DNA of 64,000 nt from an uncultured Fibrobacterota bacterium (GCA_963753345.1 CAVWBU010000018.1:64001-128000), one strand, 5' to 3'. Numbered from the stretch's first letter, positions 8,836 through 58,444 are shown. Numbers and translations are program-made. The notes: a model not told the origin generated them from the letters alone.

Positions 8836-9987
8836 ATGAAGAAAATCGTCGCGGGAATGTTTTTCGTCGCGGTCCTTGCGGTCGCAATCTTTGGCGGGAC
8901 GCAGAAGGTGGTGGTGGCCAATGACTGCCCCATTACGCTATGGATCCATTTTACCGGTAATCCTGCTCCTGATGGCGGGATAACCCATAAAATGGCCCCT
9001 AACGATACCTTGACTTTCACTAACTGGCCGGATTTCGGCGCCGGAAGGTGCTGGGCCTATTATCATGATCCCGGCACAAAGACCAATACGAGTGCACCGA
9101 TCATGCCGGAAAATGGGTTTGTGGAAATGACCGTAAGCGGCGGGCCCACCGGTGTTCAGAACTACAACATTTCCTATGTCGACTATGCCACGCTGCCGGT
9201 GAAGGTTGTGGGAGGTTCACCTAATTGCATTCCGACAATTGTGCCGGTCACCTTTAATGAGATGAAGTACCAACTCTTGCACGGGTGTCCAACACAACTC
9301 AATTTTTTCGATACCGCTTTGGGAATAGGCATATGCCTTGGTTCTTACGACTACTGCGTCCAGCCGGGATACGATACCGGAAACATATACTGCAACAAGA
9401 TGTGGCTGGGCCACCACCACCACGGTACTGAAGTATACGGCGGTTCGCTTAATCCCGGTTCGAGCGACAAACTGTTTGATTCGATTGCCGCCTGGCAAAG
9501 GGGAACATTTTACCAGGATGCGGATTCTGCCGATTACTGGAAAAAGCCGGAACAAGATTCCATCGGCAATTGGGTAAATCCCTACAACCGCTATGCTAAA
9601 TGGATCCACAAAACCATGAACGCCCAGGTGTACGCATTTGCCAACGACGACCACCAGAACCAGAGCGGTTTCCAGGCGTGCCCGAACTGCGGTGAACTCG
9701 ACATCACGTGGTGCCCGTGCGAGAACGGGTGCGCGGACGATGTGTTGGCGCAGACGGCCGCGTCGCAGTTCACGCCGGTGATGCGCTTGCAGAATGAGAA
9801 GTTTATACGATACACTCTTTTCTCGCCTAACGGAAGAACCGTACGCACCGGGTTTGCCACCTCAATGGAAGAGGTGAGCCGGGCGCTCTCGGACAGGCTC
9901 ACGCTTTCGCGGGGTGTTTATTTTGTCGCGCTGTACGGGAAAGATGGGGCGTTGGCTGCAAGTAAAAGAATTTTTGCGACGTGGTAG
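8836..9987 (+). CDS. Secreted GH64/thaumatin-like beta-1,3-glucanase, tandem paralog
   Basis: Shares PDFGAGRCWAYY, EMTVSGGPTGVQNYNIS and YAFANDDHQNQSGFQACPNCGELDITWCPCE with the upstream gene. Confidence 0.7.
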   Translation: MKKIVAGMFFVAVLAVAIFGGTQKVVVANDCPITLWIHFTGNPAPDGGITHKMAPNDTLTFTNWPDFGAGRCWAYYHDPGTKTNTSAPIMPENGFVEMTVSGGPTGVQNYNISYVDYATLPVKVVGGSPNCIPTIVPVTFNEMKYQLLHGCPTQLNFFDTALGIGICLGSYDYCVQPGYDTGNIYCNKMWLGHHHHGTEVYGGSLNPGSSDKLFDSIAAWQRGTFYQDADSADYWKKPEQDSIGNWVNPYNRYAKWIHKTMNAQVYAFANDDHQNQSGFQACPNCGELDITWCPCENGCADDVLAQTAASQFTPVMRLQNEKFIRYTLFSPNGRTVRTGFATSMEEVSRALSDRLTLSRGVYFVALYGKDGALAASKRIFATW

Positions 9988-45977: not shown

Positions 45978-46685
45978 TCATCCGCCCAGATACGCCGCTA
46001 TCACCTTGGGATTGTCCCGAATCTCGGCCGCCCTTCCGCTCAGCACGATGCACCCGGTTTCCAATACATAGGCGGAATGCGCAATAGTCAATGCCTTGTG
46101 CGCGTTCTGTTCCACCAGAAGAATCGTGGCGCCCTCGCCGTTGATCCTTTGGATCGTCTCGAACATACTTGACACAAGGGAAGGCGAGAGACCCATGGAA
46201 GGCTCGTCGAGCAGAAGAAGTTCGGCGCCGGAAACCAGGGCGCGTCCCACGGCGAGCATCTGCTGTTCCCCTCCGGAAAGCGTGCCCGCGGTCTGTTTCG
46301 CGCGCTCGCTAAGCCTGGGAAACAGGTCGAACACGTGCGCGAGCGCAGTTTCGAACGCGGCTTTGGGCTGACCCGCCGACGCGGCCACCTCCAGGTTTTC
46401 CATCACGGTGAGTGGGGAGAAAATGCCGCGGCCCTCGGGCACGTGCGCGATGCCCATTCTGGCGATGGTGTGGGCCGGAAGCCGCGCAATGTCTTTTCCT
46501 TTGAAGCGAATGGCGCCGGCCGAAGCACGGTGGAGGCCGGAAATGGTGCGCAGAATGGTCGATTTCCCGGCGCCGTTTGCGCCTACAATGGCGACAATAT
46601 GTCCCTTGTCGACGGAAAAGGAGACGTCGTCGAGCGCGGTGATGGAGCCGTAGGCGGCGCGGACGTGTTCCGCTTCAAGCAGCAT
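45978..46685 (-). CDS. livF: Branched-chain amino acid ABC transporter ATP-binding protein
   Basis: GANGAGKS, VPEGRGIF, LSGGEQQM, LLDEPSMGL, VEQNA. Confidence 0.92.
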   Translation of the reverse strand: MLLEAEHVRAAYGSITALDDVSFSVDKGHIVAIVGANGAGKSTILRTISGLHRASAGAIRFKGKDIARLPAHTIARMGIAHVPEGRGIFSPLTVMENLEVAASAGQPKAAFETALAHVFDLFPRLSERAKQTAGTLSGGEQQMLAVGRALVSGAELLLLDEPSMGLSPSLVSSMFETIQRINGEGATILLVEQNAHKALTIAHSAYVLETGCIVLSGRAAEIRDNPKVIAAYLGG

Positions 46686-47454
46686 GGCCGCCCTCTTTTC
46701 CGAGATAGGCCTCGATCACGCGCGGGTCGCTGCGCACGTCGGCGGGCGCGCCCTGCGCTATTGTTTCTCCAAAGTCAAGAACAACGATCCTTTGCGAGAC
46801 CTTCATGATCACGTGCATGTTGTGCTCGATGATGAGCATGGTGAGGCCGAAGCGTTCCTTGACCCACAGGATGGTGTCGATAAGGTCCTTTGCCTCGTTG
46901 AGGTTCATGCCCGCGGCGGGCTCGTCGAGCAGCAGCAGCGACGGCCCGGTGGCGATCGCGCGCGCGATCTCCAGGCGGCGCTGCTGACCGTAGGCCAGCG
47001 AGGAACTGCGCAGATCCGCCTTTGCCTCGAGCCCGAAAATGGACAACAGGTCGCGGCACCAGGCATCGAGGTCGTGCTCGCTTGTCCAGAACCGGGGCGG
47101 ATGGAACAGCGACGCGGCAAGGCCGTAGCCCGTACGGCGCCGTGCCGCCACCTTGATGTTGTCGATAATCGACATGTCGTGAAACAGGCGGATGTTCTGG
47201 AATGTCCTTGCAATGCCTTTGCGGTTCACTGCATGCGGCGCGAGGCCCGCCACCGACTCGCCGTTGAACACGATGTCGCCCCTGCTCGGTTTGTAGATGC
47301 CCGAGATCAGGTTGAACACCGTAGTCTTGCCCGCGCCGTTGGGACCGATGAGCCCAACAAGCTCGCCGCGCTCCATTGACAGATTAAAGTCCGCCACGGC
47401 GCACAGGCCGCCGAAGTAGCGGGTGAGGCCGGTTATGGTGAACAGCGGCATCAT
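46675..47454 (-). CDS. livG: Branched-chain amino acid ABC transporter ATP-binding protein
   Basis: GPNGAGKT, ARTFQNIRLF, LAYGQQRRLEIARA, DEPAAGM, IEHNM. Confidence 0.92.
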   Translation of the reverse strand: MMPLFTITGLTRYFGGLCAVADFNLSMERGELVGLIGPNGAGKTTVFNLISGIYKPSRGDIVFNGESVAGLAPHAVNRKGIARTFQNIRLFHDMSIIDNIKVAARRRTGYGLAASLFHPPRFWTSEHDLDAWCRDLLSIFGLEAKADLRSSSLAYGQQRRLEIARAIATGPSLLLLDEPAAGMNLNEAKDLIDTILWVKERFGLTMLIIEHNMHVIMKVSQRIVVLDFGETIAQGAPADVRSDPRVIEAYLGKEGGHAA

Positions 47455-48476
47455 GATTTCCTTTTTTCCACCATTTCCTTGTATTTCCACGGCACAAGGA
47501 ACGAAAACTCGCGCTCGCCCATGATCCCGTCACGCAGGAACCGCATCACCAGAATGAGGATGAGCGGGTAGATGGCCATGCGCCATGCCTCCAGGTTTAC
47601 AAGCCGGAGGCCTTCGGGTACGAGGGTGAAAATGCCCGCTCCCACGATGCTGCCCGCGATGCTGTGCGGCCCGCCTATGTACAGAAAGATGAGAATGTCG
47701 AGCGTCTTGAGAAAGCCGAAGTTGTCGGGATTGATGTAGCGGCTCAGGTGGGCAAACAAGGCGCCGGCGATGCCCGCGAAAAAGGCGCCGAGCGCAAAAG
47801 CGCACACCTTCTGGAACGTGGCGTTGACGCCCATGCAGGAAGCCGCGATTTCGTTGTCGCGCACGGCAATGCACGCCCTGCCGAAATGCGAATACACGAA
47901 GTTGCGCATCATCCAGAGCGAAAGAACAAAGAACGCGCCCACGTAGAATGCTCCGGAAAACGCGGGAATGGCGGGAATGCCGCGCGGCCCGCCCAGAACG
48001 TCGGTGAAGCGAAGCCCGGCCCGGATCACCTCGCCTGCGGCAAGCGTCACGATGGCAAGGTAATCGCCGCGCAGCCGAAGCGAAGGAAAACCGATGGCAA
48101 TGCCGAACGCGCCGGCCGCGGCGCCGCCCGCAAACACCGACAGCACAAACACCGCGTGGCCCGCAATAGACGTCGCGGCAAGCGGAGTGCCGAAAATCAA
48201 CTTCGGCAGCAGGGTGGTTATCGTCGCCGAGGCGTACGCGCCGATGGCCATGAATCCCGCATGCCCGAGTGAGAACTGGCCCGAGAAGCCGTTGATAAGC
48301 GCGAGCGACGCCGTGAGGATGATGTTGATTTCGATGAGAAAGAAGATGCGGGAGTAATACTGGAACTGGCGGTGGCCGGAAAACATTCCGAGCGCCGTTT
48401 GGGCGATAATGAATATGCCCAAGATCAGGAGGACCTTGGTCGTATGTTGTGGCTTTGATTCGATTTGTAAATGCAT
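47451..48476 (-). CDS. livM: Branched-chain amino acid ABC transporter permease
   Basis: GQFSLGHAGF, LRLRGDYLAIVTL, AVRDNEIAA. Confidence 0.9.
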   Translation of the reverse strand: MHLQIESKPQHTTKVLLILGIFIIAQTALGMFSGHRQFQYYSRIFFLIEINIILTASLALINGFSGQFSLGHAGFMAIGAYASATITTLLPKLIFGTPLAATSIAGHAVFVLSVFAGGAAAGAFGIAIGFPSLRLRGDYLAIVTLAAGEVIRAGLRFTDVLGGPRGIPAIPAFSGAFYVGAFFVLSLWMMRNFVYSHFGRACIAVRDNEIAASCMGVNATFQKVCAFALGAFFAGIAGALFAHLSRYINPDNFGFLKTLDILIFLYIGGPHSIAGSIVGAGIFTLVPEGLRLVNLEAWRMAIYPLILILVMRFLRDGIMGEREFSFLVPWKYKEMVEKRKS

Positions 48477-48496
48477 GTAAATAGACCTTAAGATTT

Positions 48497-48638
48497 GGGC
48501 GTCCCCGCTGCTTCGCCGCGGCGGCCCTCCTTCCAGGCTCGGCCTATCGGCCTCGTTGCCGCCTGCCGCAATGGCTCTTTGAGCCGCGGTCAGGCGGCAA
48601 TGCGCTCTGGCGCACCTTCCAGTCCTGCCTGGCGCGCG
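48497..48638 (+). repeat. Motif A, copy 8
   Basis: GGGCGTCCCC...TTGCCGCCTG...CAGGCGGCAA TGCGCTCTGGCGCA...CCTGGCGCG then GAATCTCTATTCAGTCAA. Confidence 0.8.
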
Positions 48639-48745
48639 GTAGAAGAATCTCTATTCAGTCAACGTTGTAACAGCGCCATTCCGCATCCTCAGCACACTAG
48701 TCAATGGTTCTTTCTTTGCTTTTCAACTTAGCAACTTTCGCTCGT

Positions 48746-48882
48746 GGGTGCCCCCGCACAGGTGTATGGTTCTTCGCGGCGCCATCAAGGGGGCCACCCG
48801 GGAGAGGGGGGTGCCGAGCGACACCGCAGTCCCAGCTGCAGGCGGGGCGGGGAGGCGAGGCCAGGGGAGATACCTCTCCCCC
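48746..48882 (+). repeat. Motif B, copy 4
   Basis: GGGTGCCCCCGCACAGGTGT...GGGGGCCACCC...GGGGAGATACCTCTCCCC. Confidence 0.78.
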
Positions 48883-48912
48883 AATAAATTTTAGTCATTT
48901 AATTGGCAATTT

Positions 48913-50076
48913 TTACACTTTTTCCTGCTCACTTTTCCCCAGAATTCCTGTCGGCTTGACAAGAAGGATGATCATCAATATGATAAACGCCGCGGCAAAC
49001 CCGAGGTTCGAATCCACCGAATTCGCGAACACCTCCGATATTCCCATGATAAATGCTCCGATCACCGCGCCGGGCAGGCTGCCGATGCCGCCGAGGACCG
49101 CGGCGATAAACGCCTTCATGCCGGGCGCAAAACCCAGAAACGGCGACTGGAGCACGCCGTAGTTCATGGCGTAAAGAATGCCCGATGCGCCCGCCAGCGC
49201 GGGGCCGATCACAAAGGTGAGCGCAATGATTCCGTTGACGTCAATGCCCATGAGCGCGGCGGCGTCATGGTTGAACGCCACAGCCCGCATCTGTTTTCCC
49301 AACAGCGTCTTCTCCACGAGGAACCAGAGCAGCAACAGCAGCAACCCGCACACGGCGATGTTGATGACGAACATGTTGGTGACCGAGACGTCGAGCCCGG
49401 GAATGCGCAGGAGGTCGACCCGCTTGAGCAGGTCGGGGAACGCGCGGTACTTGTTTTCGAACACCATGGGCAGGGAGCAGAAGTTCTCGAGGAAGTAGGA
49501 AACGCCGAGCGCGGTGATGAGCACCGAGAGCCTCTTCCTGCGGCGCAGCGGCCGGTAGGCGATGCGCTCCATGGCGGCGCCGAGCACGGCGCAAACTGCC
49601 ATTACGTAAAGCACGAGCAGGGGAAAAAACAGCAGGCCGAGCCTTAGCGAGTAGAGACCGCGTGAAATCGCGAGCAGCGCGGGCGCGATCGCGCAGGTGA
49701 GCGCGGCAATGCACACTAGTTTCGCCGCGTTTTCCGCGGCAACCTGCGCGGCCTTCACCCGGAACAGGCCCCCGAGAACCGGCAGGTTGCGCATCGCGAA
49801 CCGCTCGAACAGGACGGCCGTGATGAGATACGCCAGCGCCAGTCCGACAAGGACGCAGAGCTGCGGCGGAAACGCAGCCGACCCTGCGTAAAACGAGGCG
49901 GCGAAGAACGCAACATACGCGCCCACCATAAAGATATCGGCGTGGGCGAAATTGATGAGCTTGATCACGCCGTAGACAAGCGTGTACCCCAGCGCGATAA
50001 GGGCGTAGATGGAGCCGAGCTGGAGGCCGTTGATCAATTGCTGGAGGAGGTAGGACAGCATGGGCGAGCTATGCAT
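48913..50076 (-). CDS. livH: Branched-chain amino acid ABC transporter permease (with internal hydrophobic insertion)
   Basis: QQLINGLQLGSIYALIALGYTLVYG..INFAH, ERIAYRPLR, KAFIAAVLGGIGS, KPTGILG. Confidence 0.9.
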   Translation of the reverse strand: MHSSPMLSYLLQQLINGLQLGSIYALIALGYTLVYGVIKLINFAHADIFMVGAYVAFFAASFYAGSAAFPPQLCVLVGLALAYLITAVLFERFAMRNLPVLGGLFRVKAAQVAAENAAKLVCIAALTCAIAPALLAISRGLYSLRLGLLFFPLLVLYVMAVCAVLGAAMERIAYRPLRRRKRLSVLITALGVSYFLENFCSLPMVFENKYRAFPDLLKRVDLLRIPGLDVSVTNMFVINIAVCGLLLLLLWFLVEKTLLGKQMRAVAFNHDAAALMGIDVNGIIALTFVIGPALAGASGILYAMNYGVLQSPFLGFAPGMKAFIAAVLGGIGSLPGAVIGAFIMGISEVFANSVDSNLGFAAAFIILMIILLVKPTGILGKSEQEKV

Positions 50077-50288
50077 TCCCTTGTGTCAAATCAGCCGGTG
50101 TGAGTCAACACAGTTTCAAAGCGATTTGCCACCTGGCCGTCAAATGCCGCGGACGCATCCGAAGCCCGTGCGTAAAGAAGAGAAAAACTACGTATTCCTC
50201 ACCAGGAAAGCAAATGCACCATGGGGGTGGCACCGTGCGCTTTGTACCGGCGAGGGAGGAGGTTGTGGAAGGGCGAAATTCCGCCGCT

Positions 50289-51158
50289 CTAGCTCGCGGG
50301 AAGAATCCGACCAAGTGCCGCCATAATCGCCTGCGGATCAATGGTATCGAGGCAGTGTTTCTCCTTGAGCGGGCACGGCTGAGCATAGGGCACCGATCCT
50401 TTGCCTGGGCCGATGCACGGGTCGGTCGGATCGCAGGGCTTGGCCGCTTGGAGGTGCACCTGCTCGTCGTATCCGTACACCTCGTGGCTGGTGGGGCCCC
50501 ACATCGCGACCGCCCGGACACCCGCGCAGTGCGCGGCGTGCATGACGAAGTTGTCAAGCGTTATCACTGCGTTCATGCGTTTTAACAGCGCGATGAGCTG
50601 GCGCGGGGTGGTGAGCCCGAGGAGCGAGTAGGCGCCGCGCACGTGACGGTCCGACGCCCTTCCCACCTGAAATATGCCGATGTCCCTCGACGCGAGGGCC
50701 GCCGCGACCGACCGCCATATGTCAAGCGACATCTCCTTCTTGGGGGAAGCAGAGGATGCCGCGATGGCTACGTTGGTTTTTTTCCACGGCAGAAAATCGG
50801 TCAGCAGTTTGTCTTCCGTGCCGTCATTGGAAATCCAGAGGCGCTCGTCCACGGGCGTTGTGAGGCCGAAGGTGCGGGCCAGAATCTGGAACGGCCGCGC
50901 CGGGCCCGGCCCCAGGGTCTCGAGGCTCCAGTAGGTCATGTGAACGAGGGGAGCGTCTGCCGGAGGGTGGCCGATATCGGCGATGGCAGGATGCCCGGTC
51001 AGAATGTCGGTGTAATCGGTCCGCCGGATAAGATTGTAGCGTTGCTTCGGGTTCCTGTCGTGCACCATCTTGAGCACGCCGGAGAGCATGAGCGCGTCGC
51101 CCTGGCCGCCCACAGGGTTAATCCAGGGATACGCGTTTCCTTTTGTTTCATGAGCCAT
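50289..51158 (-). CDS. Glycosyltransferase family 9 (heptosyltransferase-like) protein
   Basis: GGQGDALM N-terminal motif; DNFVMHAAHCAGVRAVAMWGPT; C-terminal Cys loop; overlaps the upstream rSAM gene. Confidence 0.82.
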   Translation of the reverse strand: MAHETKGNAYPWINPVGGQGDALMLSGVLKMVHDRNPKQRYNLIRRTDYTDILTGHPAIADIGHPPADAPLVHMTYWSLETLGPGPARPFQILARTFGLTTPVDERLWISNDGTEDKLLTDFLPWKKTNVAIAASSASPKKEMSLDIWRSVAAALASRDIGIFQVGRASDRHVRGAYSLLGLTTPRQLIALLKRMNAVITLDNFVMHAAHCAGVRAVAMWGPTSHEVYGYDEQVHLQAAKPCDPTDPCIGPGKGSVPYAQPCPLKEKHCLDTIDPQAIMAALGRILPAS

Positions 51159-52257
51159 GGTGCTGGAACCTCAGGCCGGTTATCGGTTCAAAGTAATCCG
51201 TTATGAACATCCGTTTGGAATCGCACCATTCGCTTTTGTGAAGAAATCCCTTATGCTGCGACCACGCGTCCAGCGGGCATCCGCCGTGGCACAGTTTCCA
51301 GAAGCGGCACCCGGCGCATTCGCCGTCGCGCAGCACCCCGCTGCGCCGGGCCAGCTCGTCGCGCTGCGAGTCGGCAAGGATTTCCGCGAGCGATCGTTGC
51401 TGAATGTTGCCGTACGGGAGCAGGTCCCAGTCCGCTGAGCGGCCGCATTGCGAGGTTTCGCCGTTCGGCGCGATATTCACGTGGCTGTAGGCGCACTCCC
51501 CGGAATCGCAGCAGCCGAGGTTGAAGATGTTGTCCCGAATATTGTCGGTGATGCGGCGCAGCGGCTGAACGTTCGGATACCGGCCCTGGTGCTTCCACCA
51601 GACCGGAAACAGGGCGCCCAGGAAATCCGCGAATTCGCGCGGGGTCACCGCAAGGTCTTTGCGCTCGTTGTCGTAGATGAGCACCGGGTTCAGGTTGAAA
51701 TTACCGCCGGGGCATAGATTGACAAGGTAGTAAAAAAGGTCGAGCGGCCGGGCGAGCGACAGGCGCGTGACCACGTAGATTATTCCCCAGGTGAACCCGT
51801 TCCGCTTGAGCACCGAAAGCCCGTTAAAAAACCGCTCCCTGTACCATTCGGAATCGGGCGTTGCGCCTGGTCCCCGAATGTTGGGGAGAGGGTCGTAGCT
51901 GGTTCCCATGCTCGTGATGCGCAGGGCGCGCAGTGCAGGTATGTACTCCTCGGTAAGACACGTAAGGTTGGTCTGAATGCAGTGCCTGATGCGCGGCGCG
52001 GTTGACGGGCAATATGTTCGTTCCAATGCGGCCGCCTTTTCCAGATAGGCGGGCCCCAGAAGGAGCGGTTCGCCGCCGTGCCATATGAACGAGACCGCTT
52101 CCGCGGGCTTGGCAAGAAGGAATTCATTTATTCTTGTAAAGAGCATTTCCAGAATTTCAAATGACATAGTCTCGCCCCCGCGGGGCTTTCGCACCACGTC
52201 GCAATAAGCGCAGTTGGAATTGCACTTCTCGGTTACTTTGACGATCAGGTTTGCCAT
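51148..52257 (-). CDS. Radical SAM/SPASM peptide-maturase-like enzyme (anSME/3-CyFE-like)
   Basis: KVTEKCNSNCAYC, WHGGEPLL, QTN; SPASM CCDSGEC...PNGETSQC...GNI...CAGCRFWKLCHGGCP...C. Confidence 0.88.
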   Translation of the reverse strand: MANLIVKVTEKCNSNCAYCDVVRKPRGGETMSFEILEMLFTRINEFLLAKPAEAVSFIWHGGEPLLLGPAYLEKAAALERTYCPSTAPRIRHCIQTNLTCLTEEYIPALRALRITSMGTSYDPLPNIRGPGATPDSEWYRERFFNGLSVLKRNGFTWGIIYVVTRLSLARPLDLFYYLVNLCPGGNFNLNPVLIYDNERKDLAVTPREFADFLGALFPVWWKHQGRYPNVQPLRRITDNIRDNIFNLGCCDSGECAYSHVNIAPNGETSQCGRSADWDLLPYGNIQQRSLAEILADSQRDELARRSGVLRDGECAGCRFWKLCHGGCPLDAWSQHKGFLHKSEWCDSKRMFITDYFEPITGLRFQHHGS

Positions 52258-53093
52258 AGCATGTGCCGTCCCCGGCGGCTCAGATCCTTGCTCTGCTCCA
52301 CCGCATCCAGCAGGTCGGCAAAGAATTCCTTTGCTTCATTGGGGCAGTTCGCGGGATCCGCAACCGTGCCGAGGCATACCGCCAGGGCGCTGCAGATTGC
52401 GCAGGAACTGTTCTGTGCCAATAGACCAAGTGCCGAATCCAAAGGCTCGGGAGGGGCGGCAAAAAACCGCTCGATGCTCGGGGCGACGAATTCACCCCTG
52501 GCCAGGTCGGCCGCGGTGCGCGCGAGCGCGCCGTTTTCGTTCACGTGAAATGTGCCCGACGGGTCTTCGAACATCGCAGTTGTCAAGCGGTTGATGCCCG
52601 CTTCATTGTAATGTTCGGCCAGCCGCGCGAACGGATCGATCGGCGCATGGGGCGTGGTGCCCAGCAGCGCGTAGGTGCACAGGTCCGCGCAGCCGCCCCA
52701 GTCCGCAAAGCGGTCGATGATTGCGGCTGAGGCCAGTCCCAGTGACGAGAGGATGCGTATGCCCGCCAGATTCTCCGCCGTCGACGCGGGGACGTACACG
52801 CGGAGATTGAGACGCCGCAGATCGGGCAGAAGAGGGGCCAGATCGCGGAATCTTCCCACTCCGTCAACATAGAGCGCGAGCGGAATGCCCTCCCACGACG
52901 TTTCGGGCTTGATTTCTGAGAGAAGCCCGGTGAAACGTGCGCGCACGCAGCGCACCGCAACATTGCATCGCCGGGCCAAGCCGAAAGCGTCAGCAATGCC
53001 CACGGTGGAGGCCGCATCGACGACAACGTTTCTGTCCTTGAGCGCACGAAGAAGCGGTTCCCTGGGCGGGCACACAAAAACGTGATCGCTCAT
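52245..53093 (-). CDS. Degenerate radical-SAM-like protein with SPASM-like C-terminal Cys cluster
   Basis: No CxxxCxxC; C-terminal HVNENG...CAICSALAVCLG...C; overlaps both neighbouring rSAM genes. Confidence 0.65.
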   Translation of the reverse strand: MSDHVFVCPPREPLLRALKDRNVVVDAASTVGIADAFGLARRCNVAVRCVRARFTGLLSEIKPETSWEGIPLALYVDGVGRFRDLAPLLPDLRRLNLRVYVPASTAENLAGIRILSSLGLASAAIIDRFADWGGCADLCTYALLGTTPHAPIDPFARLAEHYNEAGINRLTTAMFEDPSGTFHVNENGALARTAADLARGEFVAPSIERFFAAPPEPLDSALGLLAQNSSCAICSALAVCLGTVADPANCPNEAKEFFADLLDAVEQSKDLSRRGRHMLWQT

Positions 53094-54094
53094 GCGTACA
53101 CCTCCTGAGCGCGCACGTTCGGCTCGTGACGGAAGGCCTCAAGCGCATGCGCCACGCAGCCGCCCGCGCAGTTGCCGTCCCTGCGAAGCCCGCAGGTGTC
53201 GCACGCCAGATATATTCCGCCCTGTTCGACGCGGATCTTCTTGGTGAGGCCGTCGTAATGGGTTCGCATTTCCGCAAGCGAGTTGAACTCAAAGATGGAC
53301 CGTTTGCCGAAGGCCGACAGCGGGAAGCAGGGCCACACGCTCATGTCCGGGCCGATGTCGATCACCGCGCCGCAGCCGAAGCGGCATTCGCCGCCGTATC
53401 GCATGAACCAGGCGATCTGTTCATTTGTAAACCTGCACAGCGGAAACCCGCAATCCATGCCGGGACGGATGTGCAGCCGTTCGAGGAGCGGCGCGTGTTC
53501 GAAAAACCGCTTGATGATGAGGTCGATGTCCTTTAGGGAGATGAACAGGTTCTGCTGGCCGGGGATCGGGTGCGTAAGTCCGAGCCTGATGCTTCTCTTG
53601 AGGCCGAAACGGTTGATGTGGTGGCAGATGAAATCGAGGCTGAAATCGGTCTGGTAGATGTTGAAACCCGGCGCGACGCGGCCGCCGAATTCCGCAAGGA
53701 ACGCCTCCACCCGCGGCAGTTCGGCGGCCGATTCCTCCGAACGGCCCGGATCGTTCACGTTGCAGATAAATGCGAGCGCCTCCTGGGGCAGCGCGGCAAA
53801 TGCGGCCGAGGCATCCTTAAGCTTGCTTTCGGACATGATACCGCTGGTGAACACCCGGACATGGAAACGCCGCTCGATCAGGTAGAGAACCATGTCCACG
53901 AAATCCGGATGCAGGGTGGGCTCCCCGCCGAGTATCGAAAAGGCCCGTTCGCCGCCGGCCTCGAAGAAGTCCGCAAGGTAGATGACGTTTTCCCACGAGA
54001 TTACGTCGTCCGGTGAGGAATCGGACATGTGCTTGCGGGCGAAACAGTAGGGACACGATCGCACGCAGCGCTGGGTGAAAAGAACATTGGGCAT
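53090..54094 (-). CDS. Radical SAM/SPASM enzyme
   Basis: CVRSCPYC, GGEPTLHP, DCGFPLC, C-x-DIGPDMSVWPC, CDTC-x6-CAGGC. Confidence 0.88.
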   Translation of the reverse strand: MPNVLFTQRCVRSCPYCFARKHMSDSSPDDVISWENVIYLADFFEAGGERAFSILGGEPTLHPDFVDMVLYLIERRFHVRVFTSGIMSESKLKDASAAFAALPQEALAFICNVNDPGRSEESAAELPRVEAFLAEFGGRVAPGFNIYQTDFSLDFICHHINRFGLKRSIRLGLTHPIPGQQNLFISLKDIDLIIKRFFEHAPLLERLHIRPGMDCGFPLCRFTNEQIAWFMRYGGECRFGCGAVIDIGPDMSVWPCFPLSAFGKRSIFEFNSLAEMRTHYDGLTKKIRVEQGGIYLACDTCGLRRDGNCAGGCVAHALEAFRHEPNVRAQEVYA

Positions 54095-54141
54095 AAAGTC
54101 ACCTTATTGGTTTGGCCGCAGTCTGAGAAGGTCGGCCGGAC

Positions 54142-54175
54142 AAAAAAAGGCCGGCCGCTTAAACGGCCGGCCTTT
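54142..54175 (-). terminator. Intrinsic terminator between precursor and maturase genes
   Basis: Stem AAAGGCCGGCCG/CGGCCGGCCTTT, 6-nt loop, T7 tail on the minus strand. Confidence 0.8.
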
Positions 54176-54196
54176 ATTGATATGTCAAGTACTTTG

Positions 54197-54538
54197 TCAG
54201 CTATTGGAACAGTACTCGCTCGAATAGGACCCCGCATAGCTATAGTAGAAAGAGTCGTAATAATAGCTGTAATAATAGTAGTTTGTGGTCCCGTAATAGG
54301 CGTTATAAGAAGCATAGTAGCTCGAATAACCGGAGAAGTAATCGCTGTAATAGTAAGAGTAAGTGGTATAATAGCTGCAATAGGGAACGCTGAAAGGATT
54401 GATGCAACTCAAGCCCCCGGCCACAGGAACAGAGGCCGCTGCGGCAACACCGGCAATCCTCTTCATCGCATCACGACGCGACATTGGTTTCTTTGTCGAA
54501 GGTTGGTTTTGCAGGTTGTTCGGCTTTTGTTGCGTCAT
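54197..54538 (-). CDS. Putative RiPP precursor: twin-arginine/lipobox-like leader plus Tyr/Ser-rich core
   Basis: AAGGGAG RBS; SRRDAMK-hydrophobic-GGLSC, then 26 Tyr and 15 Ser in the last 61 residues; directly upstream of rSAM genes. Confidence 0.8.
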   Translation of the reverse strand: MTQQKPNNLQNQPSTKKPMSRRDAMKRIAGVAAAASVPVAGGLSCINPFSVPYCSYYTTYSYYYSDYFSGYSSYYASYNAYYGTTNYYYYSYYYDSFYYSYAGSYSSEYCSNS

Positions 54539-54698
54539 GGTACTCTCCCTTGGATGGAATGGCGCTGGTTAAGGAACAGAAAATATAGAACGAAATAATT
54601 CCAAAAAGCAAGAGAAAAATGATGGTGGCAAGCAGTGCTTTCAGCCATCTTCCAGAGTAACTTCTGCGCAGCCCGCATGGTTGCCTGCCCTTGTAGAA

Positions 54699-54727
54699 AT
54701 TATAGAATTCCCCGGCTTTTTCGTCAA
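54699..54727 (-). promoter_or_regulatory. Near-consensus sigma70 promoter for the precursor gene
   Basis: Minus strand TTGACG-17 nt-TATAAT. Confidence 0.75.
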
Positions 54728-54876
54728 GTCCCAGAGAACACTTAATACGGGCACTTGGCAAATGAAACTTGTTTGCGTCCTGCTGATTTTGACAAGAGGT
54801 GGGTAAAACCTTATATTCTCTGAGGAGACGCCTGGTGCGAAGAGCTAGGACAGGAGAAACGAAAGGATTTGATGTG

Positions 54877-56031
54877 ATGAAAAAAAATCTGAGGTTGTCT
54901 TTGATTGTACCGATTGCTATGGTGAGTTTGTTCCTGCCTGCCGCTGGCCAGAATGAGTGCGATAATTGGCAGACAGACCACACGGACTGGATTTTCTGCG
55001 ATGATTTCGAGGACACCGGTGCGCTGGTGAAACAGGGGAGGTATTTCGAGTACGACGACAACGCAGGTGATTTTGTTCCCAAGGCCGGCATCGGGCTCAG
55101 CGGTTCACGCGGCATGCAGGTGCGATGGCAGGCAGGCGAGGTGGGCGCGGGAAGCATAAAACTGTCATTCGGCCGGAACCCCAATGCATACATGAACAAA
55201 CAGAACATCCGCCCCGGCCAGGACTTCAGGGAAATCTACTACCGCATGTACCTCAAGATGCAGAGCGGCTGGCAGGGCAGCCCGGCAAAGCTTTCGCGCG
55301 CAACCATCTTCACTTCTGCGAATGACTGGCGCCAGGCCATGATCGCGCACCTGTGGAGCGACGACAGTGCGCATCTGCTCATCGATCCCGCGAGCTGCGT
55401 TGACGGCGGGGTTGTACAGTGCACCACCTACAACGATTTCAATCACCTCAAATGGCTGGGCAACAAAAGCGGCGTCACGCCTCTTTTCGCCACAGACCAC
55501 AGCGGCACATGGTATTGTATTGAGGCGCATGTAAAGGTCAATGACCCGGGCCAGTCGAACGGCGTGCAGGAGTTCTGGATAGACGGCCGGCTCGAGGCCA
55601 GGCGGGAAGGGCTCAATTTCACCGGTACCTATGCGGATTATGGCATCAATGCCGTGTTTTTCGAGAACTACTGGAACGCTGGATCGCCGGTTCTGCAGGA
55701 ACGGTATTTCGACAACATCGTGGTTTCCACAAAGCCGATAGGATGTTTGCAGACAGGCGGGGTGAGGCCGGAGAAGAACCATGGTATGATGAATCACGGC
55801 ATGGCCACAATTGCGGTGTGCAGGAGAAGCGGCAGGGATTTTCTCGCGGTAAGGAACGGCTATCCGGGCAGGTGCAGCGTCGTTTCACCAACAGGCAAGG
55901 AAGTTCTTCGCGGTGATATTCCCGCGAACGGCATGAGTATGATTGACCTATCTGATGTGCCTTGCGGTATATTCTTGTTTGTCATGAACGACGGACATGG
56001 GTCTATGGTTTCACGACGGGTTGTACGATGA
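54877..56031 (+). CDS. Secreted beta-sandwich protein (polysaccharide-lyase-like) with T9SS-tail-like C-terminus
   Basis: Signal peptide; IFCDDFE, YYRMYLK, WYCIEAHVK, EFWIDG, YFDNIVVS; VPCGIFLFV tail. Confidence 0.6.
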   Translation: MKKNLRLSLIVPIAMVSLFLPAAGQNECDNWQTDHTDWIFCDDFEDTGALVKQGRYFEYDDNAGDFVPKAGIGLSGSRGMQVRWQAGEVGAGSIKLSFGRNPNAYMNKQNIRPGQDFREIYYRMYLKMQSGWQGSPAKLSRATIFTSANDWRQAMIAHLWSDDSAHLLIDPASCVDGGVVQCTTYNDFNHLKWLGNKSGVTPLFATDHSGTWYCIEAHVKVNDPGQSNGVQEFWIDGRLEARREGLNFTGTYADYGINAVFFENYWNAGSPVLQERYFDNIVVSTKPIGCLQTGGVRPEKNHGMMNHGMATIAVCRRSGRDFLAVRNGYPGRCSVVSPTGKEVLRGDIPANGMSMIDLSDVPCGIFLFVMNDGHGSMVSRRVVR

Positions 56032-56179
56032 GGCAACGCGGGTGGGCAAGTATCCTCCATGCAGGCAACTGATGGGTTGGTGATGACCTTGGTGCCCGGT
56101 ATCCGTTCCCAATCAAAAGTACGTGGCGGAAACGCAATATCTCAAAATTCCTGCGGCGGCGCAGGCGGAGGTTAAAAAC

Positions 56180-58444
56180 ATGCAGCGAAACGGGAATGTC
56201 GCAAAGAAGTGTTGCCGTTCCACGGCGGTGGCGCTTGTTCTCTGCCTAACCCCGGTCCTTGCGCAAGGGATCCACGTAACGGGAACCGTAGTTGACAGCA
56301 CAGGAATCGGGCTGTCGGAAGCTTCGGTCACTTTGATTTCCCAGAACCTGTCGACCGTCACCGGGCCGGATGGTTCCTTCGTATTCAGCAGCAGCGGGGT
56401 CGTCAGCGCAGGATACCGTGCAAGCGCTTCCGCGTGGCTGTACTTCAGGAACGGCGTCCTTCACCTCTTTCTTGCACACACCGAGAAGGTGACCGTACTC
56501 GTTTGTGATTCCAAAGGCAGGCGGGTCTGGGCGCAAGCCAAAGCTCTTGGGCCCGGCGATTTCGCCCTGTCTCCTCCGTTGCAGAGGATCAGTCCGCAGA
56601 TCTTGCTGTTTGAAGTGTCAATGGCCGGCAGGAGCTTTCAATTCAAACAATGCAATGTGCCTCCTGACGCATGCTGTCAACCTTGCCGCGAGACCGGGAA
56701 CGGGAGTGCCTTCGCCGGCACGGGTCTTGCCAAAGCGCTGGCTTCGCTTGATTCCCTCAGGGCCTCTATGGGCGGGTATGTCACATCGTCAATCCCCGTC
56801 GATTCCTACACGGGGAGTTACACCGTCACCCTCCATCGCATCGCTTTCTCGGCCGCGCCTGATCGCTTGACAACGTGGAATCCCGGAATCAGGTCCGACA
56901 GGGAGCTTGGTATGGCGCTTCGTTCCGACGGCTTGCCGGACCGCACCACGGTATGGGCCACGCTCAGTCCCGGCGACAACATCCAAAACGCAATCAACGG
57001 CTGTCCCGCGGGAAGGGTGGTGGTCCTGGGCCCCGGCACGTTCTCCGTTTCGTCAACGCTTCAGATTTCAAGCGGCGTTGTCCTGCGCGGTGCCGGTTCG
57101 CAGGGCGCCCCCACGGGAACGACCATTGTTAAAACCGGTGGTTCCACGGTGATAGCCATTGGACCGGACCGCGACGCCACCTGCTATGGTGGAACGGGTT
57201 ACGGCCTTGTGCAGGACGCGGTGAAGGAATCCCGTACGGTCTCCATCGGCTCGGCGGCGTCGAATTTCTCCGTTGGGGACCTTGCGCTTCTTGACGTGGT
57301 CGACGACGGCACGGTCCAGGAGGGCGACTGCGCGTATTTCAAACGCGTGGACAAAAGGTCGGCGAGCCAGCGCGTGGAGATTGCGGCAATCGACGCTGCA
57401 CACGGTCTGCTCACGCTCGATGCGCCGCTGCACTGGAACTTTAGATCGCAGAGTCCCTATCTCGCACAGATCGTGAGGGTCACGCGGCCCGTCACCAGAT
57501 GGGCCGGGATCGAAAACGTCCGGATTCAGGGCGGCACGAACCCGGGTTACGACGGCCAGATGGCCGGCGGCATCGACATTTCCAATGCCGCGTACTGTTG
57601 GGTGAAGGACGTGCAGACCGACAGCACGATCGGTGGAATGCACGTATCGCTCACCGGGACCTACCGCTGCGTTGTGCGCGACGGCTACTTTCACCATTCG
57701 GCAAACTATGGATTCGGTGCGGATTGCTATGGGATCGTATTGCGATGCGGTGCCGCCGAGAACCTTATCGAAAATAATGTGGTGAGGTACATGAACAAAC
57801 CGATCATGTTCAATGTCACCGGCGGCGGGAATGTGATCGCATACAACTATGCCGACAATTCCTGGGCCACGCCGCCCGCGTGGCAGGAAGTCAACATCGA
57901 CTGTCACTGCTCGTTCCCGCACATGGAGCTTATGGAGGGAAATGATGCCCCGCATATGGGCGCATCAACCACTCATGGCAATGCCGGGTACCTTACGTAT
58001 TTCAGAAACTACGCGTCGAGCGTGTTCGCGCCGCCGGCGGTCTACGGCTTCGGGGGCACGCAAACCGGCAACGTCACCTCGTTGCAGTTTGACGGAGGCG
58101 ACATCGGCATGAATGCGGTGGCCAATGTGCTCGGCACCTCCGGAGTCAGCACTGCCTACGATGCCTACGACAGCGGACCGTGCTCCATTTTCGAACTCGG
58201 CGCGAACGGCGCCGGTGCCGCTGATATTGCGGCTACGTCGCTTGTGCGGCAGGGAAATTACGATTATGTCAACAACAAAACCATGTGGTATCCCGCAGCC
58301 GCCCAGAGCCCGCTCCCTGCCTCGCTCTACCTTGCGGCTCAGCCCGCATGGTGGCCTGCAGGAGTTCGGTGGCCGTGGGTCGGGCCGGAACTCGCGCCCA
58401 TGGTGGGGACTTTGCCGGCAAAGGACAGAGCGCTGCACTATTAG
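56180..58444 (+). CDS. Secreted right-handed beta-helix protein (pectate-lyase-3/GH55-like) with N-terminal module
   Basis: IQNAINGCPAGRVVVLGPGTF...VVLRGAG; NLIENNV; GNVIAYNY; ASLYLAAQPAWW. Confidence 0.7.
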   Translation: MQRNGNVAKKCCRSTAVALVLCLTPVLAQGIHVTGTVVDSTGIGLSEASVTLISQNLSTVTGPDGSFVFSSSGVVSAGYRASASAWLYFRNGVLHLFLAHTEKVTVLVCDSKGRRVWAQAKALGPGDFALSPPLQRISPQILLFEVSMAGRSFQFKQCNVPPDACCQPCRETGNGSAFAGTGLAKALASLDSLRASMGGYVTSSIPVDSYTGSYTVTLHRIAFSAAPDRLTTWNPGIRSDRELGMALRSDGLPDRTTVWATLSPGDNIQNAINGCPAGRVVVLGPGTFSVSSTLQISSGVVLRGAGSQGAPTGTTIVKTGGSTVIAIGPDRDATCYGGTGYGLVQDAVKESRTVSIGSAASNFSVGDLALLDVVDDGTVQEGDCAYFKRVDKRSASQRVEIAAIDAAHGLLTLDAPLHWNFRSQSPYLAQIVRVTRPVTRWAGIENVRIQGGTNPGYDGQMAGGIDISNAAYCWVKDVQTDSTIGGMHVSLTGTYRCVVRDGYFHHSANYGFGADCYGIVLRCGAAENLIENNVVRYMNKPIMFNVTGGGNVIAYNYADNSWATPPAWQEVNIDCHCSFPHMELMEGNDAPHMGASTTHGNAGYLTYFRNYASSVFAPPAVYGFGGTQTGNVTSLQFDGGDIGMNAVANVLGTSGVSTAYDAYDSGPCSIFELGANGAGAADIAATSLVRQGNYDYVNNKTMWYPAAAQSPLPASLYLAAQPAWWPAGVRWPWVGPELAPMVGTLPAKDRALHY

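Follow-up and report, generated by a model that had tools for sequence, protein, structure and literature searches.

A minus-strand gene cassette in the genome of an uncultured Fibrobacterota bacterium probably represents an undescribed peptide-modification system. It lies in a stretch of 64,000 nucleotides (GCA_963753345.1 CAVWBU010000018.1:64001-128000; hereafter the window, from whose first letter window coordinates are counted) and comprises a Tyr-rich precursor, two radical S-adenosylmethionine (SAM) enzymes, rSAM-1 and rSAM-2, a partner protein and a family 9 glycosyltransferase (GT9). Its conserved core consists of the precursor, rSAM-1, the partner and rSAM-2, the latter resembling anaerobic sulfatase-maturating enzymes (anSME). 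The reading that we favour, at a probability of roughly 60% and on sequence grounds, is that of a system akin to those of ribosomally synthesised peptides with post-translational modification (RiPPs), in which a Tyr-rich polypeptide would be crosslinked by two radical SAM activities while its leader would act as both recognition element and twin-arginine translocation (Tat) signal. That the precursor is the substrate, which modification it undergoes, its Tat export and what the partner and the GT9 do are all inferred. The features of the locus are the following.

54197-54538, minus strand: precursor gene, 113 amino acids (open reading frame, ORF, with ribosome-binding site)
53090-54094, minus strand: rSAM-1, 334 amino acids (PF04055, CxxxCxxC)
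52245-53093, minus strand: partner, 282 amino acids (no curated family; predicted radical-SAM-maturase-like fold)
51148-52257, minus strand: rSAM-2, 369 amino acids (PF04055, PF13186, TIGR04085; anSME-like)
50289-51158, minus strand: GT9 glycosyltransferase, 289 amino acids (PF01075)
54699-54727, minus strand: sigma-70-like promoter of the precursor gene, TTGACG-17-TATAAT (consensus match 11/12)
54146-54175, minus strand: hairpin and T-run between precursor and rSAM-1 (13 pairs, 9 of them G-C, then T7)
50216-50233, minus strand: weak terminator-like site 3' of the GT9 gene, which may mark the operon end (6 pairs, 3 of them G-C)

DNA was examined for six loci with a partner homolog, namely the window, L005, L006, L007, L016 and L015. 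In all five loci other than the window, a Tyr-rich ORF with a Tat-type leader lies directly upstream of the enzymes; the usual lack of such a peptide beside the enzyme homologs was the outcome that the first-pass annotation of this DNA had named as speaking against its proposal of a new RiPP-type system. A sister Chitinivibrionales metagenome-assembled genome (MAG; L005) holds all five genes in the order of the window, a Phycisphaerae MAG (L006) holds precursor, rSAM-1, partner and rSAM-2 and then a second rSAM-2 paralog, after which the contig ends, and two related proteobacterial MAGs (L007 and L016) hold precursor, rSAM-1, partner and rSAM-2 and no GT9; all four of these close relatives retain the window's gene order. 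In a planctomycete variant (L015; G911:C98, 3762-8403), the order is Tat-leader ORF (leader SRRAFFQRMG), SPASM enzyme, partner homolog (hhalign probability 96%), rSAM-1 homolog and second SPASM enzyme. Both anSME-like SPASM enzymes of this variant are intact, and the SAM-cluster motif of its rSAM-1 homolog is degraded to CQRRCPSR, the third Cys of CxxxCxxC being lost; two of its four enzyme-like proteins may thus be non-catalytic. The upstream ORFs of the five other loci encode 113-136 amino acids with an RR leader and a first Cys 24-30 residues past the RR, and across the loci the cores measure 69-90 residues, with 14-38% Tyr and 0-2 basic residues. Repeats are seen in the cores of L006 (DYSSAYSSNG, three times), L007 (GYGVSGDYVA-type, four times) and L015 (a 27-residue unit rich in Cys, Tyr, Asp and Gly, twice). 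In six of six loci a precursor composed of leader and core stands beside modifying enzymes, which is how a RiPP is defined at the gene level, with the leaders conserved and the cores variable; conserved enzymes next to divergent cores make a RiPP-like pattern.

The precursor is a real gene under purifying selection. Its 113 codons align gap-free with those of the sister genome, with 28 differences at 70 synonymous sites and 29 at 269 non-synonymous sites (ratio of non-synonymous to synonymous rates, dN/dS, 0.20), and its ATG is preceded by the ribosome-binding-site-like GGGAGAG. A word-based protein search for precursor relatives returned only two, both close. The N-terminus reads ...KKPMSRRDAMKRIAGVAAAASVPVAGGLSC and displays a Tat-type motif, SRRDAMKRIAG, plus a hydrophobic stretch. 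The first Cys is residue 45, and the 69-residue core thereafter contains 26 Tyr, 16 Ser, 3 Cys and 2 aliphatic residues, no Lys, Arg or His, and no Trp. The precursor is the most Tyr-rich stretch of the 4.5-Mb genome (20 Tyr in 40 residues; the runner-up has 14). In triceptides, an aromatic ring is joined through a C-C bond to the beta-carbon of the residue that lies two positions further along; aromatic-x-x triplets are plentiful in the core, but trivially so at 38% Tyr. Elsewhere in the genome, other Tyr-rich and secreted-looking ORFs (12-14 Tyr in 40 residues) with no radical SAM gene nearby were seen on contigs C3 (around 16239, plus strand), C41 (around 195672, plus strand) and C21 (around 248944, minus strand), those of C41 and C21 being paralogs with a common C-terminal domain.

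Precursors from three phyla retain the leader stretch [ST]RRDA[LM]KR[IM]A, which within the window genome occurs in this ORF alone. Model TIGR01409 matches four of the five precursors scanned (window, L006, L007 and L016) at 14-16.8 bits, that of L016 passing at 16.8, while the L015 precursor gave no TIGR01409 match. TatC is encoded in the genome (222 bits), and a crude regular expression finds about ten Tat-like N-termini there, the precursor included. The first Cys is conserved in position across the precursors. A lipobox has the consensus [LVI][ASTVI][GAS]C at the signal end; around the first Cys, GLSC of the window and AGPC of L006 do not fit it, whereas ITGC of L007 and IAGC of L016 do.

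Judged by its motifs and domain models, rSAM-2 is a radical SAM/SPASM enzyme of the anSME-like kind. It contains KVTEKCNSNCAYC, WHGGEP and QTN, just as the first-pass annotation had read them, and passes PF04055 (50.1 bits, cut-off 29.5), PF13186 (26.9, cut-off 21.5) and TIGR04085 (42.9, cut-off 27). Its identity to the counterparts is 57% (L006), 48% (L007) and 35% (L015). No specific family cut-off is approached: rSAM-2 stays below those of DarE (NF038005, 112 of 650 bits), DarW (NF041300, 122 of 650) and DynA (NF041298, 127 of 450), as do the five counterparts tested, and below that of anSME (TIGR03942, 122 versus 349.45 bits). Among the cyclophane synthases, it scores 54.8 of 450 bits with XyeB (TIGR04496), 60.4 of 310 with GrrM/OscB (TIGR04261), 63.6 of 370 with FxsB (TIGR04269), 78.9 of 445 with YhhB (NF041707) and 74.5 of 425 with AmcB (NF041718). 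The kinship with Xye, Grr and Fxs synthases that had been put forward is hence a loose one, those models giving 55-64 bits and even the best matches, DynA, DarW and anSME, lying far below cut-off. When compared with solved structures, the sole full-length match was anSME itself (4k36/4k37; 58 bits, residues 4-354). We considered and rejected rSAM-2 as the anSME of the organism, since a genuine anSME gene lies elsewhere in the genome (G000 C21:239318-240322, L002 1453-2592), with 406 bits for TIGR03942. This true anSME reaches 181 bits on the DynA model and outscores rSAM-2 (127 bits), so the DynA match reflects a shared anSME-like scaffold and no special kinship. Within the cassette, rSAM-2 is most likely the main modifier of the core.

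rSAM-1 carries its CxxxCxxC motif at residues 10-17, read as CVRSCPYC, together with GGEPT, and matches PF04055 with 56 bits; no SPASM model and no family beyond PF04055 matched it. Of the earlier statement that both enzymes combine CxxxCxxC with SPASM cysteines, the motif therefore stands for both and the SPASM models for rSAM-2, rSAM-1 having no SPASM model match. Across 23 homologs, the invariant Cys are C10, C14, C17, C220, C241, C256, C298, C301, C309 and C313, with C111 and C215 nearly so (one count gave six invariant and two nearly invariant Cys beyond the SAM-cluster motif). Since the protein begins at the SAM cluster, it has no N-terminal RiPP recognition element (RRE) domain. Its AlphaFold model (predicted local distance difference test, pLDDT, 83.1) finds its best folds in SuiB, CteB, anSME, SkfB and ChlB, with template-modelling scores by query (TMq) of 0.55-0.64, and weak model matches were obtained to PqqE and the mycofactocin maturase (23-24 bits; PqqE 21.7 bits in a separate search). 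There are 1155 homologs, all at least 51% identical among the 120 matches listed, with Gemmatimonadetes and Nitrospirae MAGs among the sources; identity across phyla is about 60%.

Two further loci touch on the wider rSAM-1-like family. A plasmid of Candidatus Chlorohelix allophototropha (NZ_CP128402.1, 4339-11388; L010) encodes an rSAM-1-like protein, 31% identical, amid three proteins annotated as radical SAM, one WD40 protein and hypotheticals, with an IS21 element adjoining; this is a different, undescribed cluster with several radical SAM genes. A planctomycete contig (L026; G349:C58, 7248-9743) bears another RiPP-like cluster, in which a tandem pair of distantly rSAM-1-like genes (202 and 159 bits with the rSAM-1 profile) is accompanied by a 101-residue ORF that looks PqqD-like by eye (9189-9494) and by a 68-residue ORF (9537-9743) ending in SLYYYY, which hints that the wider family may also act on Tyr-rich peptide tails.

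The partner matched no Pfam or NCBIfam model, and its profile retrieved 0 matches from the PDB sequences. Its predicted structure (pLDDT 78.8; predicted template-modelling score, pTM, 0.78) has ChlB, CteB and SuiB as nearest folds (TMq 0.52-0.56, E 1.7e-4). It has no CxxxCxxC motif and keeps an invariant C231-x2-C234-x5-C240 as well as a later Cys near the C-terminus, C8 and C49 being nearly invariant; in one neighbouring atlas cluster, 17% of the members bear a SPASM annotation. Identity to the counterparts is 36% and 32%. Among the cassette genes, that of the partner serves as the most specific marker. A word-based search returned 25 relatives, and a profile search of 1.84 billion representative proteins returned 410 clusters at E <= 0.001, of which 240 remained at E <= 1e-30. 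The predicted complex of rSAM-1 with the partner scored 0.84, against 0.01 for the best control; in the calibration of this score, whose counts are only rough because own alignments were used, 58 of the 80 solved complexes attained that mark, as did 2 of the 110 mismatched pairs. Three runs agreed in at least 100% of the contacts, with a partner pLDDT of at least 86. Invariant or nearly invariant columns at the interface include F82, R113, S117, L118, D137, Y141 and G145 of the partner and W34, I38, D42, Y71, E74 and R75 of rSAM-1. The modelling thus supports binding of rSAM-1 to the partner.

The GT9, which the first-pass annotation had counted in the system, does not belong to the conserved genes. 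It was found in the window and the sister genome only and was not seen in L007, L016 or L015, the L006 contig ending before this could be read; it was therefore rejected as a member of the core cassette, and the suggestion of a possibly glycosylated product holds for this lineage at most. The protein matches PF01075 (36 bits, cut-off 22) and ranks sixth of the seven PF01075 matches of the genome (35.8 bits; only a 22-bit fragment is lower, and the top reaches up to 133 bits). It falls below the cut-offs for the lipopolysaccharide (LPS) heptosyltransferases I (TIGR02193, 17.7 of 185.3 bits), II (TIGR02195, 19.7 of 134.6) and III (TIGR02201, 15.6 of 170.2), and the search of PDB sequences gave no match to TibC and only 3tov at E 0.16. 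We infer a lineage-specific accessory tailoring enzyme. TibC and AAH enzymes modify many Ser of a repetitive protein in the cytoplasm prior to export. Protein-glycosylating heptosyltransferases have a described precedent in TibC/AAH, the BAHT family (PMC4358343), from which the window GT9 differs in that it is shorter (289 amino acids), shows no sequence match and is not kept with the cassette.

The distribution of the cassette is patchy. The partner profile was found in 2 of 41 relatives, in 2 of 296 genomes of the window's phylum, in 1 of 301 of the class of G296 and in 1 of 301 of the order of G297. The rSAM-1 profile matched two genomes in each of two sets of 61 relatives, those of G296 and those of G297, as well as 1 of 401 genomes of the class of G297 and 7 of 401 of the phylum of G296, a planctomycete, six of these seven being distant homologs (138-219 bits). 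Scanning of the loci of these six revealed a partner, an rSAM-2 or GT9 homolog, or an ORF with RR and Tyr-rich sequence in none, though two are contigs of 3.5-3.9 kb, so that absence there is weak evidence. We regard the six distant loci as other systems, so that 1155 rSAM-1 homologs is too high a figure for the cassette family. A spread of this kind fits transfer of the cassette as a unit.

Within the window, the ORF listing agrees with the first description of five co-oriented minus-strand genes, in which the enzyme genes overlap stop to start at 53090-53093 (4 nt), 52245-52257 (13 nt) and 51148-51158 (11 nt). The separate promoter postulated for the precursor gene corresponds to the promoter-like site TTGACG-17-TATAAT at 54727-54699, which is a consensus match only; a scan of the region gave 4 promoter-like sites compared with 1.9 +/- 1.4 in shuffles. 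The hairpin between precursor and rSAM-1, on which the first-pass annotation was silent, folds with -39.9 kcal/mol (z = -4.5), a stability that none of 200 shuffles attained. RiPP operons often have a strong precursor promoter and then a hairpin ahead of the enzyme genes, and the hairpin at 54146-54175 is probably a partial terminator giving a high ratio of precursor to enzyme transcripts. The terminator-like sites of the region, 4 against 5.2 +/- 2.4 in shuffles, show no excess, so the site after the GT9 gene counts as weak evidence. An Rfam search of 49900-55000 gave no match. Near the cassette no gene for a peptidase or peptide exporter was seen, as had been stated at first: the neighbours are genes of a branched-chain amino-acid ATP-binding cassette (ABC) importer (45978-50076, after a gap of 213 bp downstream of the GT9 gene) and polysaccharide-lyase-like genes. 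The latter encode two large, secreted-looking proteins on the plus strand (54799-58444), divergent from the precursor gene. The first of the pair, with 410 amino acids, has weak polysaccharide-lyase matches (PF21294, 21.7 bits; PF14099, 18.1 bits; both below cut-off), and its gene also adjoins the cassette in the sister genome; the other, with 773 amino acids, has CarboxypepD_reg and pectate-lyase-like matches, likewise below cut-off. Back-to-back promoter-like sites occur in the 260-bp spacer (window 54681-54817), the plus-strand one at 54789-54817 (TTGACA-17-TATATT, 11/12).

As to how the system might operate, we propose that the precursor, driven by its own promoter, is synthesised in excess, the hairpin terminator letting only some transcripts run into the enzyme genes, and that its Tyr/Ser-rich core would be modified in the cytoplasm by rSAM-2 and by a heterodimer of rSAM-1 and the partner. 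The partner would be non-catalytic and would probably supply substrate binding or an extra Fe-S cluster, a role suggested by the fact that neither radical SAM enzyme has an RRE domain. By analogy with other anSME-like peptide maturases, the chemistry would most likely consist of repeated C-C or C-O crosslinks between side chains, located at Tyr or at an adjacent residue, yielding a rigid, multiply cyclised polypeptide, to which the GT9 may, in the window lineage, add sugars at Ser or Tyr. The N-terminal region would be both recognition leader and twin-arginine signal, with export through Tat and removal of the leader by signal peptidase, which would explain why neither a dedicated protease nor an exporter is encoded. 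It is possible, though we hold this only tentatively, that the product is no small diffusible RiPP but a Tyr "ladder" material, a chain of 70-90 residues stitched by the two radical SAM activities in the cytoplasm and exported through Tat, since threading in the unfolded state is impossible for a crosslinked chain; the conserved first Cys would then be the mature N-terminus, perhaps a lipid anchor.

The proposal of a Tyr-crosslinking, RiPP-like system draws support from the nearest folds and families of both radical SAM enzymes, which are peptide maturases. Several observations weigh against it. The putative modification is deduced from gene context and homology, the loci sampled are few (six, from about four lineages), and the cores, at 69-90 residues, are long for a RiPP. 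An alignment of the window precursor with six counterparts revealed cores that share composition and no common motif, so that the modification site cannot be named. The best model matches of rSAM-2 reveal little about the chemistry, the true anSME scoring higher on the DynA model, and the lost SAM-cluster Cys of the L015 homolog implies that rSAM-1 catalysis is not essential in every version of the cassette. The description of the partner as degenerate is justified at the level of predicted fold (ChlB, CteB and SuiB) but not at that of sequence, as a profile comparison with rSAM-1 found no similarity (probability 0.9%) and the likeness to radical SAM enzymes is one of predicted fold only. Finally, the window leader just misses the TIGR01409 cut-off (15.1 versus 16.7 bits) and reaches 14.1 bits with PF10518 (cut-off 22.7), and an intergenic hairpin, looked for in the L006 and L007 loci, was found in neither.

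Different accounts of the same genes have to be weighed against crosslinking of Tyr. rSAM-2 might act like anSME, oxidising Ser or Cys of the core to aldehydes or carbonyls (formylglycine-type) or epimerising residues, with no Tyr crosslinks being made; anSME is, after all, the only solved structure matched over the full length (58 bits, residues 4-354), its TIGR03942 score of 122 bits is about that of DynA and DarW, and the core offers 16 Ser and 3 Cys. We nevertheless consider this unlikely, as 122 bits compares with a cut-off of 349.45 and the genome has its true anSME (406 bits) elsewhere, as the target residue of the sulfatase motif (C/S-x-P/A-x-R) must be followed by Pro and Arg, the latter being absent from the core, and as Tyr is enriched in all six precursors while Ser amounts to only 2 of 73 residues in L015. 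A rather smaller chance is left to the idea that the Tyr-rich protein, an exported component of the envelope or matrix, is independent of the enzymes, which would act on a cofactor, a lipid or LPS. The long, low-complexity core does recall some structural proteins, the Tyr-rich secreted-looking ORFs mentioned above lie away from radical SAM genes, and the operon ends with a GT9, a family typical of LPS core synthesis. Such independence is hard to reconcile with an adjacency kept in five of five loci across three phyla despite differing flanks, and with a cassette so patchy (2 of 296 genomes of the window's phylum) that transfer as a unit is indicated; moreover, the GT9 is not conserved with the cassette, and the three core enzymes reach no cut-off of a cofactor or LPS family, nor one of a characterised RiPP family, which favours the first-pass annotation on a point on which it had staked its proposal.

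Slighter again is the likelihood that the precursor is a sacrificial scaffold for Tyr-derived small molecules or cofactors. The pathways of pyrroloquinoline quinone (PQQ), mycofactocin and pearlin-type compounds use Tyr, and PqqE and the mycofactocin maturase are among the weak matches of rSAM-1 (23-24 bits; PqqE 21.7), yet the cut-offs of these PqqE- and mycofactocin-type models exceed the scores more than ten-fold, the six loci contain neither a peptidase nor an amidase nor any other enzyme for release, and a Tat-type signal with a conserved Cys would make little sense in a cytoplasmic scaffold. Least credible is that the 113-residue ORF is a chance open frame in an AT-richer spacer. Its low complexity, the mere two relatives from the word-based search and a G+C content falling to 47%, from about 60% around, could be cited for this, the low G+C being due to the Tyr and Ser codons. 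We rejected it on account of purifying selection (dN/dS 0.20) and of conserved counterparts of the same architecture in three phyla, to which a ribosome-binding site, a promoter-like site and a terminator-like hairpin can be added.

To place the putative Tyr-crosslinking system among known ones, the families that it most resembles can be compared in turn. It shares with triceptides and the Grr, Fxs and Xye systems an anSME-like radical SAM/SPASM enzyme without RRE beside an aromatic-repeat precursor, with clear repeats in L006, L007 and L015. Triceptides are described as carrying C-C crosslinks from an aromatic to a non-aromatic residue (PMC9055067). The present cassette differs from all of these in its second radical SAM enzyme and degenerate partner, its Tat-type leader and its core, which is 69-90 residues long and up to 38% Tyr. 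DarE, DarW and DynA, which are single anSME-like aromatic crosslinkers, have the specific NCBIfam models that score best with rSAM-2 and with each of its counterparts (127-174 bits), although these scores are far below the cut-offs of 450-650 and the window core has no Trp. The precursors of darobactins and dynobactins are short and depend on ABC export, their cores being heptapeptides or decapeptides that contain Trp. anSME agrees with rSAM-2 in length, SPASM domain and lack of an RRE, but here a precursor occurs without a sulfatase or sulfatase motif, and the TIGR03942 cut-off is missed. SuiB (streptide), CteB (sactipeptide), SkfB and ChlB are the best structural matches of rSAM-1 (TMq 0.55-0.64) and of the partner (0.52-0.56), at an identity of only 13-17% and, for SuiB and CteB, by alignment over part of longer chains (score by target, TMt, 0.48-0.52). 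Moreover, SuiB and CteB carry an N-terminal RRE domain that has no counterpart here, where instead a separate protein of the same fold, devoid of the SAM-cluster motif, is predicted to pair with rSAM-1. QhpD, from the maturation of quinohemoprotein amine dehydrogenase, is a radical SAM/SPASM enzyme that crosslinks the small subunit QhpC in the cytoplasm before its exit; its product is a protein and no short peptide, the crosslinks are Cys-to-Asp/Glu thioethers, and the system has its own protease and ABC exporter. rSAM-2 matches the corresponding model weakly (TIGR03906, 51.6 bits versus a cut-off of 453), and this locus is without dehydrogenase subunits. Four features thus set the cassette apart: the Tat-type leader, the long, Tyr-rich and basic-free core, the radical SAM enzyme with a degenerate subunit of radical SAM fold, and the lack of RRE, protease and exporter. 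A literature search covering titles and abstract openings found no description of such a system, and a prior mention in a large mining study is possible; within this scope, and with no specific family cut-off being reached, the initial impression that the gene combination belongs to no characterised class agrees with what we found.

New peptide crosslink chemistry comes mainly from radical SAM/SPASM maturases, among whose products are the darobactins that target BamA. In this light, the locus described here is a well-defined and conserved candidate for a new RiPP class and for a new export logic. The cassette would define a new class of precursors, with a Tat-type leader, 14-38% Tyr and almost no basic residues, and for the two enzyme families and the helper family found here no curated model exists. 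With 410 partner clusters at 50% identity, such systems could be widespread and overlooked in uncultured Fibrobacterota, Planctomycetota, Proteobacteria, Gemmatimonadota and Nitrospirota. Furthermore, the predicted heterodimer of rSAM-1 and partner offers a concrete hypothesis for how maturases without RRE might recognise their substrates. If the tentative ladder reading is true, it would reveal a new export logic for radical-SAM-modified peptides and a new enzyme arrangement, in which an active radical SAM enzyme is paired with a degenerate subunit of radical SAM fold that replaces the RRE.

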